Origin: a bacterium
GTDB lineage: Bacteria; Zhuqueibacterota; Zhuqueibacteria; Oceanimicrobiales; Oceanimicrobiaceae
Assembly (NCBI GenBank): GCA_046757025.1
Contig: JBHHXN010000119.1
Coordinates: 1-16,256, forward strand
DNA: 16,256 bases
Reading direction: 5' to 3'
Shown here: one piece after another, positions 7,760 to 14,500 of the stretch
How the letters are laid out: the number at the start of each line of letters is the position of its first letter
Position numbering within the stretch: the first letter of the stretch is position 1
Made by a program: the position numbers and the translations under genes
Notes under the pieces: model-generated
Database searches by the model: none
What the model saw: the letters and a program-made list of their open reading frames with translations, nothing else
What the model was told of the DNA's origin: nothing

Positions 7760-8032
7760 TCAAGCGGCAGCGCAAGCGGTCTCTTTTTTGCCGGTGATGG
7801 CCGCATAAATCATCGCCGTGGCACAACCCACTCCGCTATCCACCGAAATGGCGCCAGTGGGACAATTCAGCTGGCAGGCACCGCACTCCATACAGTTCGC
7901 CGGACGCACTAGCTCCACCACGCCGTTGGTTCTTTCAAACACGGCGTGGGGACAAACCGAGCTGCATATTTTACAATGATTGCATAGCGCGGGATTAAAA
8001 CGCAGCGTGTTTTGCAAATACGCGTTGAACAT
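7760..8032 (-). CDS. hgcB: Mercury methylation ferredoxin HgcB (2x[4Fe-4S])
   Basis: Two CxxCxxCxxxC motifs including the HgcB signature CMECGAC and the conserved GVGCA; starts 1 nt after the hgcA stop. Confidence 0.95.
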   Translation of the reverse strand: MFNAYLQNTLRFNPALCNHCKICSSVCPHAVFERTNGVVELVRPANCMECGACQLNCPTGAISVDSGVGCATAMIYAAITGKKETACAAA

Positions 8033-8033
8033 C

Positions 8034-9038
8034 TCAACCTCCTATTTTGTTGATCAAGGTTACGGTAATGGAAAGAATCAAACCGCCGCCAAACATCCAG
8101 GCCATGACCGGCGCATACTTGAATATTTCTCGTTTTACGCCGCTGCGGGAAGTAAAAGTAGTGGAGCCGGTAAAGTTGAGCGAAAGAAAGGCGGTCACCG
8201 CCGGCAGCGTGCAAAGGTAAGCCAGCGCCCAGCCAGCGCGCTGCCAGAAGACGATATCCGGATGCGTGGAAAAACTGATGAGAGCAAACGGCAGAGCGAT
8301 CAATCCGCCGAGGATAAATCCCTTGGTACTGAAATTGGCGGTGGGCAGCCAGGGTAGGAGAATGGGAAACAAAACCACGCCGGCCAGAATCGCCGCCAGA
8401 GCACCGGCCGAAGTCAGTGGCCCGCCTAAAAAAAATAAAAGCACAGCCGCTATCATGGAGGGAACGGACACCGTAACTACTTCCACCGGTACCACCAGCA
8501 GGCGGTCCAACAGGTTGAATCGTACACGACGCATTTCTTTGGTGGCCGACTTCGCTTCAAGATACGCCTTGATATCCCGCGCATACACCGGACCGAATTC
8601 CACATGAAAGCCGCTTTGTTGTTTGATCAGGTGTGCCGCCACGCCGGGCGCGCCCAATTGCGGCAAAATCAATCTTCTGTGTTTGACGACTTTGTGAAGC
8701 TGGGTCGCTCGTATGCGATCCACCAGCTCGTCCGTACCAAAGGTTCCTTTGCCTGCGGCACACCAGACGTTGATGCCCTTCGTGTCCAGCACCAGCAGGT
8801 AACAATCTACTCCGGCCAGGGATGAACGCAGCGCATCGAAGCTGAGGCGATAGTTGGCCGTAACCAACACCGGCGACCTGGCGTCGGGGCGACCGAGCGA
8901 ATATAGCCCAGGCGCCACCCGGTGTCCGCCGCGGTTGATGGCCAAACGCGCCAAAATGTGGTGCCAGCGGTCGGCTGCTGAGATGCGGCTATTTGTTTGC
9001 CGGATTTCCGGGCCCGCGTTCTGGATTTTTTCAGACAT
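8034..9038 (-). CDS. hgcA: Mercury methylation corrinoid protein HgcA
   Basis: Cap-helix signature GINVWCAAGKGTFG, VLVTANYRLSFD, LILPQLGAPGV, C-terminal TM helices and LNFTGSTTFTSRSGVKRE; AGGAGG RBS. Confidence 0.97.
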   Translation of the reverse strand: MSEKIQNAGPEIRQTNSRISAADRWHHILARLAINRGGHRVAPGLYSLGRPDARSPVLVTANYRLSFDALRSSLAGVDCYLLVLDTKGINVWCAAGKGTFGTDELVDRIRATQLHKVVKHRRLILPQLGAPGVAAHLIKQQSGFHVEFGPVYARDIKAYLEAKSATKEMRRVRFNLLDRLLVVPVEVVTVSVPSMIAAVLLFFLGGPLTSAGALAAILAGVVLFPILLPWLPTANFSTKGFILGGLIALPFALISFSTHPDIVFWQRAGWALAYLCTLPAVTAFLSLNFTGSTTFTSRSGVKREIFKYAPVMAWMFGGGLILSITVTLINKIGG

Positions 9039-9096
9039 TGCATCCTCCTGTCATTTAATTACACACCCATTAAATTATATCGGGATTTCTGCCACA

Positions 9097-9120
9097 CAAA
9101 AGTCAACTACCCAATAATGC
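9097..9120. promoter_or_regulatory. Degenerate copy of the putative MarR operator upstream of hgcA
   Basis: CAAAAGTCA-ACTACC-CAATAATGC; 16/24 identical to the marR promoter site with an identical 6-nt spacer; overlaps a minus-strand TTGACT (9106-9101). Confidence 0.45.
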
Positions 9121-9215
9121 ACAAGCGAAATGGTGAATACAGCGACCTCGAACTCGGCTTAGGCTTCTTCAATCAACCATCTCAAAAGCCAAGGTGTCTG
9201 GCTGGATGTATTATG

Positions 9216-10073
9216 TCATTTCACGGCCTGCACTTTGATGCTGGCGATGCGTGCAGTGTCGTCAAAGGTTATCCGGGTCTGGTTAGGGAGTTGCGCCTCG
9301 GCCGCGGCAACGATTTCTCTGCTCAATTCGAATCGGCTTAGCACCTTCACCTCCCGGAACCCCGCCTCCTGGATGGCCCGTAAATAGTCTGGTTCGCTGA
9401 GGGCGCCGCCCACGCAGCCAGCCCACCAAGCCAAGTTACTGCGCACCTCCTGAGAAAGCCCCTCGGCCACCATGTCCGAAATCACCATCTTTCCGCTCGG
9501 CTTCAGTACTCGAAAGGCTTCTCGAAATACTCGCGGTTTATCGGGTGAAAGGTTGATCACACAATTGGAAATGATCCAGTCGACACTGTCATCTTCTACC
9601 GGCATATTTTCCATTTCCCCCAGACGGAATTCGACGTTGTTCACACCCGCTTTTCGGGCATTCTCTTCGGCTTTCTGAATCATCTCAGGTGTCATGTCAA
9701 TGCCAATGACCTTGCCGCTCTGCCCGACTTTTCTCGATGCGATCAGCACATCCAACCCGGCACCCGAGCCTAAATCCAAGACCACATCGCCTTCTTTCAT
9801 CGCCACCTGTTCCAGTGGCGCGCCGCAACCGAATGTGTTTTCTACGGCTTCCCGGGGTATTTCTGCAAGTTCGGTTTTGTGGTAACCCAGTTTTTCGGCA
9901 TAGCTCATTTCAGGAGTGCCTGCCGGTGCGCAGCAAGAATGGGCGGCTTCGTAGTTTTGCACAGAAGATGCCGACGGAGCGCAGCCACAATCGGCTCGCT
10001 CCATACCGCTTTTTGTAATCAACGCGGCGTAGTGTTCTTTGACAGCTTGCTTGATCGTTTTGTCGTTTGCCAT
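9216..10073 (-). CDS. arsM: Arsenite S-adenosylmethionine methyltransferase (ArsM/AS3MT-like)
   Basis: AVKEHYA, N-terminal CGC and [49 protein letters not shown]; the conserved ArsM-type cysteines are present. Confidence 0.85.
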
Positions 10074-10102
10074 TTCAAACTCTCCATTTTTTATAAGGGA
10101 TA

Positions 10103-10126
10103 AAATTGTTATGTTCCTAACTATTT
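10103..10126. promoter_or_regulatory. Putative MarR operator (inverted repeat) between marR and arsM
   Basis: AAATTGTTA-TGTTCC-TAACTATTT, 8/9 symmetric with a 6-nt spacer. Confidence 0.65.
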
Positions 10127-10137
10127 AACAAAAAAAA

Positions 10138-10611
10138 TTACAGTGTGATTTGGCTATTGAATTTATCCAGAAGATCGCGCAGTTGTTTCACGTCCTCCGA
10201 ATTTAGCTCGGCACAGCACTTGTTGGTGATGGCCAGCAAATCCAGAGTCTGATTCTGCAGGGCCTTGCCCTTTTTGGTCAACCGAATGAGGATAACGCGC
10301 CGGTCATCGCTGCCGCGATCCCGGAAAACCAGACCATTTTTCTCCATGGTATCCACGATGCCGGTGATGGTGCTTTTCGCGGTGCCGTGCACCTTCGCCA
10401 GCTCGTTGAGGGGAATGCCGTCTTTTACCCAAAGGTGGCGCAAAATATAATATTGCTGCGGTGTGACACCAAAGGAAGTGATAAATTCGTTGTGAATGCG
10501 AAAGAGTTTCTTGTTGATCTTGTCGATGAGATCCGCCACGGCTTCGAAATCCTGTAAATCGACATCGCAGGTTGCCGGCTCACAGCAGAGATTCGATTTT
10601 CGAACAGCCAT
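10138..10611 (-). CDS. MarR-family transcriptional regulator with N- and C-terminal vicinal cysteines
   Basis: GVTPQQYYILRHLW, KSTITGIVDTMEKNGLV, DDRRVILIRLTKKG winged helix; NLCCEPATC and NKCC. Confidence 0.93.
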   Translation of the reverse strand: MAVRKSNLCCEPATCDVDLQDFEAVADLIDKINKKLFRIHNEFITSFGVTPQQYYILRHLWVKDGIPLNELAKVHGTAKSTITGIVDTMEKNGLVFRDRGSDDRRVILIRLTKKGKALQNQTLDLLAITNKCCAELNSEDVKQLRDLLDKFNSQITL

Positions 10612-10624
10612 TAATTTACCTTCC

Positions 10625-10648
10625 TAATAGTTAACTACCGAACAGTAT
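10625..10648. promoter_or_regulatory. Putative MarR autoregulatory operator overlapping the -10 and start site
   Basis: TAATAGTTA-ACTACC-GAACAGTAT; same half-site and spacer length as 10103-10126; contains the perfect palindrome TAGTTAACTA (10628-10637). Confidence 0.65.
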
Positions 10649-10672
10649 ACGCAATTTCCGACTCATTGTCAA
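10644..10672 (-). promoter_or_regulatory. Near-consensus sigma70 promoter of marR-arsM(-hgcAB)
   Basis: Minus strand TTGACA (10672-10667), 17 nt, TATACT (10649-10644). Confidence 0.85.
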
Positions 10673-10841: not shown

Positions 10842-11160
10842 TCATTTCCAGCTCCTCAATTTTGCGGTAAAGGTGGACTCAATGATGCCCGTTTCCTTCA
10901 AAATTTGGGCACGGCGCCCTTGCCCGAGCTGCAATTTTTTGTAGATAAAATGGCGTTCAAAATTCCTGACGGCTTTTTTCAAGGGCTGGTCGTAATCGAT
11001 GACAAATCGCTCCTGCGGTTGGTCGCTGACGTGATCCGGCAAATCTTCCACTTTTATCTGGTCACTTTCACAAAAAATCATGGCACGTTCGATAACATTT
11101 TCCAACTCGCGTACCTGACCCTGCCACTTGAAATAAGGCAGTTTTTTTCTGATTACCTGA
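10842..11160 (-). pseudogene. C-terminal remnant of a sigma54-dependent (NtrC-family) activator: AAA+ lid plus Fis-type HTH only
   Basis: YFKWQGQVRELENVIERAMIF (cf. WPGNVRELEN) and LKKAVRNFERHFIYKKL...TGIIESTFTAKL; no Walker A or GAFTGA upstream; the ORF-track start (11360) lies inside a terminator hairpin. 5' boundary approximate. Confidence 0.65.
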
Positions 11161-11335
11161 TCCTGGAGTTCGGTTATCGAAATGAAATGAAGAGTTGGAA
11201 CTGATTCATAAGGAAATTTGCAATCAAAATTACTTTCGCCATTTGCAAGTTTAGCAACATTTGGTAACATTTGTTTACAAGAAAGCCTCAACCGTAAAGA
11301 CCGGCTGCCTGAAACGCCGTCATACCTGCACCCAT

Positions 11336-11368
11336 AAAAAAGGGCCTTTGTAAAAAACAAAGACCCTT
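11336..11368 (-). terminator. Rho-independent terminator
   Basis: Minus strand AAGGGTCTTTG-TTTTTTA-CAAAGGCCCTT-TTTT; 11-bp stem with a G-U pair that forms only on the minus strand. Confidence 0.75.
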
Positions 11369-11676: not shown

Positions 11677-12327
11677 TCAATCCGAATTGACTCGTTTCAC
11701 GTAGATCACTTCGCAGATGTTCGATTCCAGTGCTAACACCGTTTCGTCAATTTTGACTACATAGGATGGGTGTTTCTGCTCCAGTCGAATGAGGTTGTCA
11801 GGAAGCACGCCAAAAATAGCCAGCCTTTCCAGGGTTTTGTTGCGGCCCGGTGCGATAAAGACGATCTTTGCTGTTTCGCCAATTTCCATGTCTTTCAGTC
11901 GGTGCACTACTGGTTTCACATCCCGGTTGAATTTTGCACAGCATGCGCCACGCGGAATGGCAATGCCGTGGGGACACACGGGCGGATGCCCAAGAAAGGT
12001 ACAAACGCTCTCAGTGACTTCCGGGCTTAATATATGTTCGAAGGCACAGGCGGATTTGGTCATTTCATTATCGCTGACATGAAAGACGTCGGTGAGCAAT
12101 CTTTCCGCCAGCAGATGCCGACGAATGATGGATTCGGCCTTTTTCAGTCCTTTGGGTTTGAGCTGCAACGTATTATTTTTGAGCGAGATAAACCCGTTGC
12201 GTTCCAGCATTTTCACCGTAGCTTTGGCCGAAAACGGCGCCTGCGACAAAATGGTCTCTGAATCCACGATGCATTTTTCATGCATCAGCCAGATGGTTTT
12301 CAGCAAGTGGTCCGCTTTTTCAGTCAT
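11677..12327 (-). CDS. DtxR/MntR-type metal-dependent regulator fused to a C-terminal FeoA domain
   Basis: IIRRHLLAERLLTDVF, ACAFEHILS, FLGHPPVCPHGIAIP; FeoA-like RLKDMEIGETAKI...ERLAIFGVLPDNLIRL. Confidence 0.9.
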   Translation of the reverse strand: MTEKADHLLKTIWLMHEKCIVDSETILSQAPFSAKATVKMLERNGFISLKNNTLQLKPKGLKKAESIIRRHLLAERLLTDVFHVSDNEMTKSACAFEHILSPEVTESVCTFLGHPPVCPHGIAIPRGACCAKFNRDVKPVVHRLKDMEIGETAKIVFIAPGRNKTLERLAIFGVLPDNLIRLEQKHPSYVVKIDETVLALESNICEVIYVKRVNSD

Positions 12328-12571
12328 GCTTTGAATCCCCGGATTTAAACATTTTCTTCACAAAGTTCACCAGAGTCGATTCCGCAGGCCACTGATAAGC
12401 ACAATTAGGACAGCAAATAAGCCGGCAGTCCGAACCGAAAGGACATCTTGAACAGGTGGTTTCCCGGCTATGGAAGAAGCGATTTCCACACAACGGACAG
12501 GTGATCATTTCATTCACGATGACATCCTCACCATTGGCACGAGCACCATTGTTTTTTCGTCGATTTGTCAT
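12320..12571 (-). CDS. Small cysteine-rich protein (Zn-ribbon/Fe-S, FeoB-associated)
   Basis: CPLCG...CSRCPFGSDCRLICCPNCAY (8 Cys); abuts the feoB stop and overlaps the next start. Confidence 0.75.
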   Translation of the reverse strand: MTNRRKNNGARANGEDVIVNEMITCPLCGNRFFHSRETTCSRCPFGSDCRLICCPNCAYQWPAESTLVNFVKKMFKSGDSKHD

Positions 12572-14500
12572 TTAGGATAAAATCCAATTCAAAATACCGC
12601 CCACAAAAAAAGCAAATGGAATGATGAACAGCGTGATTGCCACAGCGGTTTTCCATCCTCGTTCTTTGATGATGACAAAAAAATTCGCAATACAGGGGAC
12701 AAACAGCGTGATGGTCACCAGACTGACGATTATCTGGTTGCTGTTTAATAGGCCTTGCCGGGCCATATCAAATAGTCCGGCCGCGCCGTAATCCCGACGC
12801 AAAAAACCGATCAAAAAGGCTTTGGCGGTTTCTTCCGGCAATCCCATAAATCCGCTGATGAGCGGAGCCGACCAGCTCTCGATCACCTGCAAAGCGCCGG
12901 TTTTGGCCAGTACGAATAAAATAAACGTGCCCAAAAAGAACAGCGGTACGGCTTCTTTTAAATACCATTCCACGCGGGCAATGGTTTTAATTGCGATATT
13001 TGCAACGCTAGGTCTGCGAATCGGCGGCAGCTCCAAAATGAAATCCGAACTTTCGCCGGGCAAAACCAACGAAGCAAAATAACCCACTAAAATCAGCACA
13101 CCGCTAATGCAGGCAAGCCAGATGAACACCGCGGATGGCGTCAGTCCGCTGAGCAAACCGAGAATGACGCCAAGCTGAGCGGAGCAGGGTATGCCCAAAG
13201 CCAGCAGCAAAGTCACCAAAACGCGCTCTTTGCGGGTTTCTAAAATGCGAGTAGTCAGGGTCGCCATGGTGTCGCAGCCGAGGCCCAAAACCATGGGCAG
13301 CACCGCCTTGCCGTTCAAACCGAATAATTTGAAAATGCGATTTAACATCACCGCCAATCGCGGCAAATAACCGGAATCTTCCAGCAATCCGAATGCTAAA
13401 AAAAAGGTCGTCACCACCGGCAAAACGATGGCCACAGAGTACGAAAGGGCCATGGTGATTAAACCGTATTCACCCACCACCAATTCTTGTAGCAATTTTA
13501 GGGGCAGTAAAAATGTAAACAATTTTGTGGCCAGGGGATTGATGAATTCCCCGAACAACACTCCTTCGAAAAAATCCACAACCGTGCCGGCGCCAAATAC
13601 TCCCACGAATAAGTACAAGCCATACAAAACCGCGCACAATACAGGCAGCCCCCAGAACGGATGCATGGAAATACTGCTTAAAAAATCGTTAAATCGGCGG
13701 CTGCCAACTTTTTCGATTTTATAGACTTCATGAATAATCACTTCCGCTTTTTGTAAACGCCGCTCATTGATCACCACGTTGGCGGACTGTGGCAATTGTT
13801 TCTGTACTTTTTGACAAATGCCCTCGATGCGTTTCAGGACCTCGGCGGATACATTTTCAGTCAGCCAGTTTTTGAGGCTTTCATCGCCGGCCAGAATCAT
13901 CAAAGCGAGCGAACGTTTGGAAATGAAAATCTCCGGTAGCAGGATTTCGATTTCCGCCACACCATCTTCGATTACAGGGGGGTATTCGATTGTCAGTGAG
14001 GAAGTGTAGGGGTTGTTTCCGATTTCATGTACTAAATCCATCATTCCCCGGCGATGGATAGCCACGGTTTCCACCACCGGCACGCCAAATATTTCTGCAA
14101 GTTTGGATTTATCCACGGTGACCCCGCGGCTGTGCGCCTCATCCATCATGTTCAAATTCAGAATAAAGGGAATTTGCATCTCCGCTAATTGCACTGACAA
14201 AAACAAAGCTCGGCGCAAATTTTTCGCATCGGCTACCTGCACCGCCACACGCGATTGTTCATGCAGCAAAATATTGCGGGTGACTACTTCGTCTTCCGAG
14301 TATGGCAAGAGACTGTTGACGCCGGGGGTGTCGATGACCACATCCGAGCTGCCGTCATAGTGGGCATTCCCTTGTGAAATCTCCACCGTGGTTCCCGGAT
14401 AATTCGACACAGTCACGTAACTTCCGGTTAAATAACCAAATATCACACTTTTGCCGACATTGGGATTCCCTATTAAAATAATCTTGTTCTTTTTATTCAT
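12572..14500 (-). CDS. feoB: Ferrous iron transporter FeoB
   Basis: G motifs GNPNVGKS, NYPGTTVE, DTPG, NMMD; membrane motifs LEDSGYLPRLA, GLGC, IPCSAQL, FILELPP, LFVPCIA. Confidence 0.97.
   Translation of the reverse strand: MNKKNKIILIGNPNVGKSVIFGYLTGSYVTVSNYPGTTVEISQGNAHYDGSSDVVIDTPGVNSLLPYSEDEVVTRNILLHEQSRVAVQVADAKNLRRALFLSVQLAEMQIPFILNLNMMDEAHSRGVTVDKSKLAEIFGVPVVETVAIHRRGMMDLVHEIGNNPYTSSLTIEYPPVIEDGVAEIEILLPEIFISKRSLALMILAGDESLKNWLTENVSAEVLKRIEGICQKVQKQLPQSANVVINERRLQKAEVIIHEVYKIEKVGSRRFNDFLSSISMHPFWGLPVLCAVLYGLYLFVGVFGAGTVVDFFEGVLFGEFINPLATKLFTFLLPLKLLQELVVGEYGLITMALSYSVAIVLPVVTTFFLAFGLLEDSGYLPRLAVMLNRIFKLFGLNGKAVLPMVLGLGCDTMATLTTRILETRKERVLVTLLLALGIPCSAQLGVILGLLSGLTPSAVFIWLACISGVLILVGYFASLVLPGESSDFILELPPIRRPSVANIAIKTIARVEWYLKEAVPLFFLGTFILFVLAKTGALQVIESWSAPLISGFMGLPEETAKAFLIGFLRRDYGAAGLFDMARQGLLNSNQIIVSLVTITLFVPCIANFFVIIKERGWKTAVAITLFIIPFAFFVGGILNWILS

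Follow-up and report, generated by a model that had tools for sequence, protein, structure and literature searches.

Contig JBHHXN010000119.1 (GCA_046757025.1), from a member of the Oceanimicrobiaceae (Zhuqueibacterota), carries on its minus strand, in this order, a marR-type regulatory gene, arsM, hgcA, and hgcB, separated by gaps of 64, 177, and 1 bp. This arrangement raises the question of whether a single repressor controls both arsenic methylation and mercury methylation. A sequence-only reading had reported an operator-like 24-mer recurring before marR, arsM, and hgcA, and had proposed that the MarR protein directly represses hgcAB. We analyzed the same stretch of 16,256 nt (the window), whose relevant genes and marR promoter are:

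10138..10611, minus strand: marR, 157 aa (Pfam MarR PF01047, 51.6 bits; cut-off 24.6)
9216..10073, minus strand: arsM, arsenite methyltransferase, 285 aa (NCBIfam NF008823, 305.9; cut-off 263)
8034..9038, minus strand: hgcA, 334 aa (NF040863, 430.2; cut-off 275; cap helix NVWCAAGK)
7760..8032, minus strand: hgcB, ferredoxin, 90 aa (NF040864, 101.7; cut-off 99)
10644..10672, minus strand: predicted marR promoter, TTGACA-17-TATACT, the top promoter-like site in the window (11/12 matches)

The HgcA, HgcB, and ArsM proteins all score above their own family cut-offs, and the cap helix of HgcA conforms to the motif N(V/I)WCA(A/G)GK, as given in the accessible part of PMC10349881. The marR promoter is sigma-70-like, with its -10 element TATACT at 10649-10644. 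Directly upstream of marR lies a 172-aa C-terminal fragment of a sigma-54 activator (10842-11360, minus strand) that retains the AAA lid and HTH domains only, possibly a remnant marking a rearrangement. Two other parts of the window deserve mention. The minus strand at 11677-14500 encodes a DtxR-type regulator with a FeoA domain, a small cysteine-rich ORF, and a gene that by eye resembles feoB. A 125-aa ORF without family match (2709 to about 1948, minus strand) runs in frame through three TGA codons. With TGA read as U, it scores 42.3 against Pfam MerB (cut-off 27), and the MerB and SaoL models of NCBIfam give weak matches. We regard this ORF as a candidate for a MerB-like lyase with several selenocysteines, encoded about 5 kb from hgcAB.

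The operator motif was derived from 24 non-redundant loci encoding a window-type MarR, taken from genomes and metagenomes with the window excluded. A palindromic model applied to 47 regions flanking marR on either side in these loci gave a de novo motif with a log-likelihood of 289, against 36-46 for five shuffles. The motif search among orthologues that the sequence-only reading had suggested yields a palindrome independently of the window. Its consensus is the 20-bp palindrome ATAGTTMGG-NN-CCKAACTAT, and in many regions the best and second-best sites are exactly 15 bp apart, tandem copies being usual. The consensus proposed earlier is to be corrected, its N6 spacer not being free: the orthologues conserve GG-NN-CC within it. 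Because the spacer holds this conserved GG and CC, the identical spacer noted in the marR and hgcA copies is in part the motif core.

Two matrices were built from these sites, an archaea-rich one from all loci (39 sites) and a bacterial one (10 sites from 8 bacterial loci). Further archaeal matches to the window-type MarR comprised 29 loci in 23 of 251 genomes; four were dropped as repeats of training loci, and among the remaining 25, a site of 15 bits or more adjoins marR in 18 and is missing in 7. These loci are mutually related and a few of them resemble training loci, so they do not count as independent draws. At the level of sequence, we show that the 20-bp motif travels with this MarR subfamily across bacteria and archaea.

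All three 24-mers were recovered, at 10625-10648 (marR), 10103-10126 (arsM), and 9097-9120 (hgcA). In that order, they agree with the earlier consensus at 13, 15, and 10 positions out of 18, and their self-complementarity is 10, 18, and 6 out of 24; the marR copy does overlap the -10 element of the marR promoter. The following sites were considered, none of the operator sites being assigned a strand:

10627..10646: operator copy 1 at marR (14/18 consensus; 15.4 bits), overlapping the -10 element and the predicted start site
10612..10631: operator copy 2 at marR (8.6 bits), 15 bp from copy 1, over the ribosome-binding region
10105..10124: operator copy 1 before arsM, the strongest (16/18 consensus), rank 1 genome-wide with both matrices
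10090..10109: weak operator copy 2 before arsM (6.0 bits), 15 bp from copy 1
9099..9118: candidate weak operator before hgcA (11/18 consensus; 7.6 bits with the bacterial matrix, 0.3 bits with the all-loci matrix)
9074..9106, minus strand: possible hgcA promoter elements, TTGACT (9106-9101) and TATAAT (9079-9074), 21 bp apart, a non-canonical pair

The genome-wide matrix scan, which the sequence-only reading had also suggested, covered 5,956,537 positions of the 5.96-Mb genome. The first arsM copy tops them all, and it is the sole match in the window with three or fewer mismatches (none in 200 shuffles). The first marR copy ranks 6th with the bacterial matrix and 33rd with the all-loci matrix. 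When tandem pairs are ranked genome-wide, the arsM pair comes 1st and the marR pair 2nd; the second copy of each had been missed earlier. Chance is a most unlikely source of the marR and arsM sites. Given the motif from 24 loci, its recurrence in the archaeal loci, and its position over the -10 element, the proposal that the adjacent MarR has this motif as its operator finds good support at these two genes, and we predict with considerable confidence that both sites serve the window MarR in this way. The six intergenic pieces folded showed no unusual structure (z from -0.65 to 1.82), and a terminator or RNA structure was rejected as an explanation of the sites. Elsewhere in the genome, two further arsM-like genes and six ArsR genes have no upstream site exceeding 6.7 bits, and the six other intergenic motif matches inspected have no arsenic-related genes downstream. 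No wider regulon is evident in this genome.

The MarR protein has cysteines at positions 9, 10, and 15, in the N-terminal tail, and at 132 and 133. The Cys132-Cys133 pair is invariant in all 23 aligned homologues, and the N-terminal Cys-Cys pair occurs in 14 of them; Cys15 is not conserved in this alignment. Among more distant proteins, a CC at the 132-133 position is found in 35 of the best 45 representatives versus 7 of the next 76. In the predicted structure the pair ends a helix (residues 125-135) and residues 1-12 are disordered; the top fold matches are HpaR, MarR, and MepR, which, together with PF01047, place the protein in the MarR family. Three more specific identities were considered and rejected. 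OhrR is the best NCBIfam match, yet scores only 56.1 against a cut-off of 200. An ArsR2-type hgcAB regulator would carry PF01022, which the window MarR lacks, the sole PF01022 match of the contig being a DeoR-type gene. The third is MarR_ars, defined by Cys36, Cys37, and Cys157 in the available part of the report on AdMarR_ars of Achromobacter deleyi As-55 (bioRxiv 10.1101/2021.08.12.456183). The window protein has the ars gene context of that group, with arsM downstream of marR here and in 18 of the 24 other loci, but no cysteine near positions 36-37, an equivalence that follows the numbering of the paper, AdMarR_ars itself lying outside our alignment. Nor does it have a cysteine before the TxxQ helix, where the MarR_ars-like proteins linked to hgcA (described below) carry theirs. 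In a quick tree composed without published MarR_ars sequences, the window MarR stands apart from 16 MarR_ars-like proteins with 97% SH-aLRT support. The window MarR is likely to represent a distinct cysteine-bearing subfamily that goes with arsM.

A DGC-domain gene lies between marR and arsM in locus L034, and in locus L032, a bacterial orthologue, marR precedes a gene with a TusA/DsrE domain rather than arsM. A true hgcA adjoins marR-arsM in none of the 24. Window-type MarR proteins are found in 3 of 167 genomes of the phylum, and in 1 of 25 genomes around G168; in G052/G167 and G168, no hgcA was found with the window query.

The site before hgcA is of another order. It had been described as degenerate and weakest, and this holds: it matches the consensus at fewer positions than the marR and arsM copies, with 7 mismatches in 18, and its 24-mer is no more palindromic than chance. 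It does overlap the TTGACT hexamer, as claimed, and covers the expected -35 region for the TATAAT at 9079-9074; the TTGACT/TATAAT pair itself is absent from the promoter-scan list. The site is the best in the 177-bp gap and 4th in the window, behind three operator copies, with a score inside the range of weak orthologous sites. It is identical to marR copy 1 at 15 of 20 positions and to the arsM site at 12 of 20, and it shares 15 of 17 positions with the second marR site of the orthologous locus L001. No terminator was detected between arsM and hgcA (9039-9215), so read-through from marR or arsM would offer a second route of control. The gap also contains a 15-bp imperfect palindrome (12/15) at 9049-9063, just upstream of the hgcA ribosome-binding site, for which conservation in relatives was not seen.

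Against the background of other upstream regions of the genome, defined by crude long-ORF gene calls, the hgcA site is borderline, standing out with some models and not with others. It is equalled by 0.3-6% of regions under the bacterial models, and by 39% (878/2261) under the all-loci matrix. The symmetric bacterial matrix gives 117/2096 (5.6%), the oriented bacterial matrix 72/2096, the tandem model 23/2096, and the oriented matrix including second copies 14/2096, with 0/681 among AT-matched regions; the oriented models, which are the most favorable, were chosen after the site was known. Identity of at least 15/20 to either window operator occurs in 7/2096 other upstream regions, and when any window of the marR promoter is allowed as query, 11-17% of regions match as well as the hgcA site does. 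The background level can be read from the 27 other hgcA loci: in two of them a site as good as or better than the one here (10.1 and 7.5 bits) lies within 200 bp, although neither genome encodes this MarR. In genome G012, the single relative that carries both a window-type MarR and hgcAB, the best site in the 1.5 kb before hgcA reaches 5.3 bits.

Comparison with relatives provided no ancestry for the gap. The site is not conserved upstream of hgcA in relatives, where the gap aligns no better than chance, and we found no close relative sharing the marR-arsM-hgcA gene order. The gap showed no significant alignment to DNA downstream of arsM (L001, L002), to regions upstream of hgcA (four relatives), or to marR promoters (four), with P from 0.065 to 0.78.

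Elsewhere in the phylum, hgcAB is usually accompanied by a different regulator. Among the 167 genomes, 28 contain hgcA, and in 17 of 27 other hgcAB loci a MarR_ars-like protein with the pattern C-C/Y-G-V-S/T-L-x-Q is encoded within the 1.5-kb flanks, 16 times upstream and once downstream of hgcAB (L052-L079). A 21-bp palindrome, ATAnTTGTATnATACAAnTAT, is present in 16 of these 17 loci just after a -10-like element. This regulator shares with the window MarR the MarR fold and an operator with outer arms ATAGTT...AACTAT placed downstream of the -10 element. It differs in being about 32% identical to the window MarR, in lying across the 97%-supported branch of the quick tree, and in its operator, which has 21 bp and a TTGTA-NNN-TACAA core in place of 20 bp and GG-NN-CC. 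A search of the window genome (95% complete) with these 17 regulators as queries hit the window MarR (about 32%) and one other, weak match; no MarR_ars-like protein was found. A relic of its operator before the window hgcA was also considered, and is absent (-2.3 bits). In G012 the two systems lie on separate contigs, marR-arsM on one and the MarR_ars-like gene, arsN2, and hgcAB on the other. The MarR_ars-like gene and arsN2 (above its NCBIfam cut-off) span L012:322-1399, so that here a second kind of ars gene is sandwiched between a MarR gene and hgcA. The genes preceding hgcA vary among the closest relatives of the window hgcA.

These observations must be weighed against the chance that only marR and arsM have a real operator. 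In that case, the hgcA site would be a chance likeness aided by a -35-like TTGACT, hgcAB would use its own promoter (TATAAT, 9079-9074) independently of MarR, and the adjacency would reflect a recent rearrangement. We regard this as a serious possibility, somewhat short of an even chance. The low palindromy and score of the site favor it, as do the 5.6% of upstream regions that equal it under the symmetric bacterial matrix, the lack of a true hgcA beside marR-arsM in the other 24 loci, the differing genes before hgcA in the closest relatives, and the perfect -10 hexamer inside the 177-bp gap. It accounts less well for the direct identity to a window operator, matched in just 7 of 2096 regions, for the missing terminator after arsM, and for the failure to find the usual hgcAB regulator of the phylum in this genome. 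The resemblance could also have a historical origin, the hgcA copy being a decayed duplicate of a marR-type promoter left by an insertion and free of selection, with any effect on hgcAB exerted through read-through from the marR or arsM promoter. The likeness to the asymmetric marR form in the same orientation (15/20) does exceed that to the arsM site (12/20) or to the symmetric consensus, which speaks for such a duplicate, but it ends within about 25 bp, and local alignment of the gap with the marR promoter is not significant (P 0.2); we consider this origin improbable.

A separate matter is the signal. The invariant Cys132-Cys133 pair, the abundance of cysteines in the N-terminal tail, and the association with arsM suggest that the MarR thiols would bind a trivalent metalloid, be it As(III), MAs(III), or Sb(III), with release of the DNA, which we consider reasonably probable. 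The protein might instead bind the same sites and sense oxidation or another soft metal (Hg(II), Cu, or Zn), an alternative that concerns the signal only and is compatible with the reading preferred below. Its cysteine layout is unlike that of the tested MarR_ars, its best NCBIfam match is OhrR, albeit far below the cut-off (56 vs 200), and the L032 orthologue, with its TusA/DsrE-domain neighbor, is not tied to arsM. Against it, 18 of 24 loci have arsM downstream, and the one cysteine that could play the part of an OhrR-like helix-1 cysteine, Cys15, lacks conservation. We consider such a signal rather unlikely.

The reading that we prefer, by a small measure, is an operator at marR and arsM with a possible weak dampening of hgcAB in this genome. 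From the position of the sites and the behavior of the MarR family, the protein would occupy the paired palindromes at marR and at arsM, spaced 15 bp apart, in the form of tandem dimers, and the bound dimer would block RNA polymerase and repress both genes until metalloid on the MarR thiols freed the DNA. In this genome, hgcAB may be dampened through the weak third site or by read-through. Direct binding of MarR at the hgcA site is possible, with the balance of the sequence evidence slightly on the side of doubt; some control of hgcAB by MarR through either route appears marginally probable. The simplest history, put forward more tentatively, would be the arrival of a marR-arsM cassette in front of hgcAB genes already without their usual MarR_ars-like regulator. 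The earlier interpretation is well supported as regards the operator at marR and arsM; its proposal that MarR directly represses hgcAB comes down to one weak site. Since the site is not conserved before hgcA in relatives and marR-arsM adjoins a true hgcA in none of the 24 other loci, we abandon the idea of a general cis-element for mercury methylation; the hgcA site is at most a lineage-specific link. The connection to mercury methylation is plausible, with one weak site in one genome behind it.

The archaeal loci offer another connection to HgcA-like proteins. In the 29 loci, arsM is downstream of marR in 7 and divergent in 2, and 6 contain a fusion of a SAM-methyltransferase, an HgcA-like corrinoid domain, and a membrane domain (L092, L095, L099, L100, L101, L116), as the next gene in five and one gene further in one; such a fusion is also present in the training locus L035 (4781-6827), to which one of the six is identical. 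All six fusion loci have a near-perfect operator, of at least 19 bits, after marR, and a HgcB-like ferredoxin follows the fusion in L035 and L116. As an HgcA the fusion is rejected: it scores 175.6 against the cut-off of 275, and its NVWCAARG lacks the GK ending, so it is a paralogue of HgcA. The ORF before another such fusion (L084:52-699, oriented) resembles, by eye, an Acr3 arsenite efflux protein. One could propose a second metalloid-sensing MarR subfamily, with a Cys-Cys pair at the end of helix 5 and a tandem 20-bp operator, spread over bacteria and Asgard-type archaea and recruited several times to the control of SAM-dependent metal(loid) methylation. Its targets would be arsM, the HgcA-like fusion, and here true hgcAB, where it would have replaced the usual regulator and a new operator would be arising before hgcA; we consider this broad scheme rather unlikely as a whole. 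If it were true, a specific DNA site would let arsenic switch on mercury methylation, and the archaeal fusions, as relatives of HgcA that respond to arsenic, would bear on the native function of HgcA.

These results bear on what controls hgcAB and on the purpose of HgcAB. The locus offers a purifiable 157-aa repressor, an exact operator, a predicted critical GG/CC, and predicted sensor cysteines, making the arsenic-mercury link approachable without culturing the organism. The mercury part would amount to a swap of regulators in one genome and not to a general rule. In a literature search of partial coverage, we found no description of the 20-bp operator, the cysteine pattern, or the MarR subfamily; the operator and the MarR subfamily for arsM are apparently new and form the firm part of the finding.

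In the accessible parts of published gene neighborhood work, both MarR genes before hgcA and arsM near hgcAB are already known, although given there without a binding site, cysteine pattern, or subfamily; the parts of PMC10083202, PMC12484752, and PMC12953829 available to us contain nothing further on MarR. AdMarR_ars resembles the window MarR in its conserved cysteines, its organoarsenic neighbor gene, its sites at its own and an ars promoter, and a regulon that is also strictly local, according to the available text (10.1101/2021.08.12.456183). It differs in that it regulates arsV (with arsN and arsP predicted), whereas the window MarR goes with arsM, and those portions of the text give no operator sequence to compare with the window motif. 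For hgcAB, the only tested regulator in the literature covered, itself accessible in part, is ArsR-like: ArsR2 of Pseudodesulfovibrio mercurii ND132, which responds to arsenic and SAH and is co-transcribed with hgcAB (bioRxiv 10.1101/2022.10.17.512643). The words "operator" and "palindrom" are both absent from the available text of that study. In a lake study, as far as its accessible text goes, ArsR-like control correlated with lower hgcA expression (PMC11984097). Like the window MarR, the ND132 ArsR2 is, in the text available, a cysteine-bearing repressor upstream of hgcAB, and it links arsenic sensing to mercury methylation, as the window MarR may; unlike the window MarR, ArsR2 belongs to the ArsR/SmtB family (PF01022) and lies directly before hgcA, whereas the window places a MarR there, with arsM in between.
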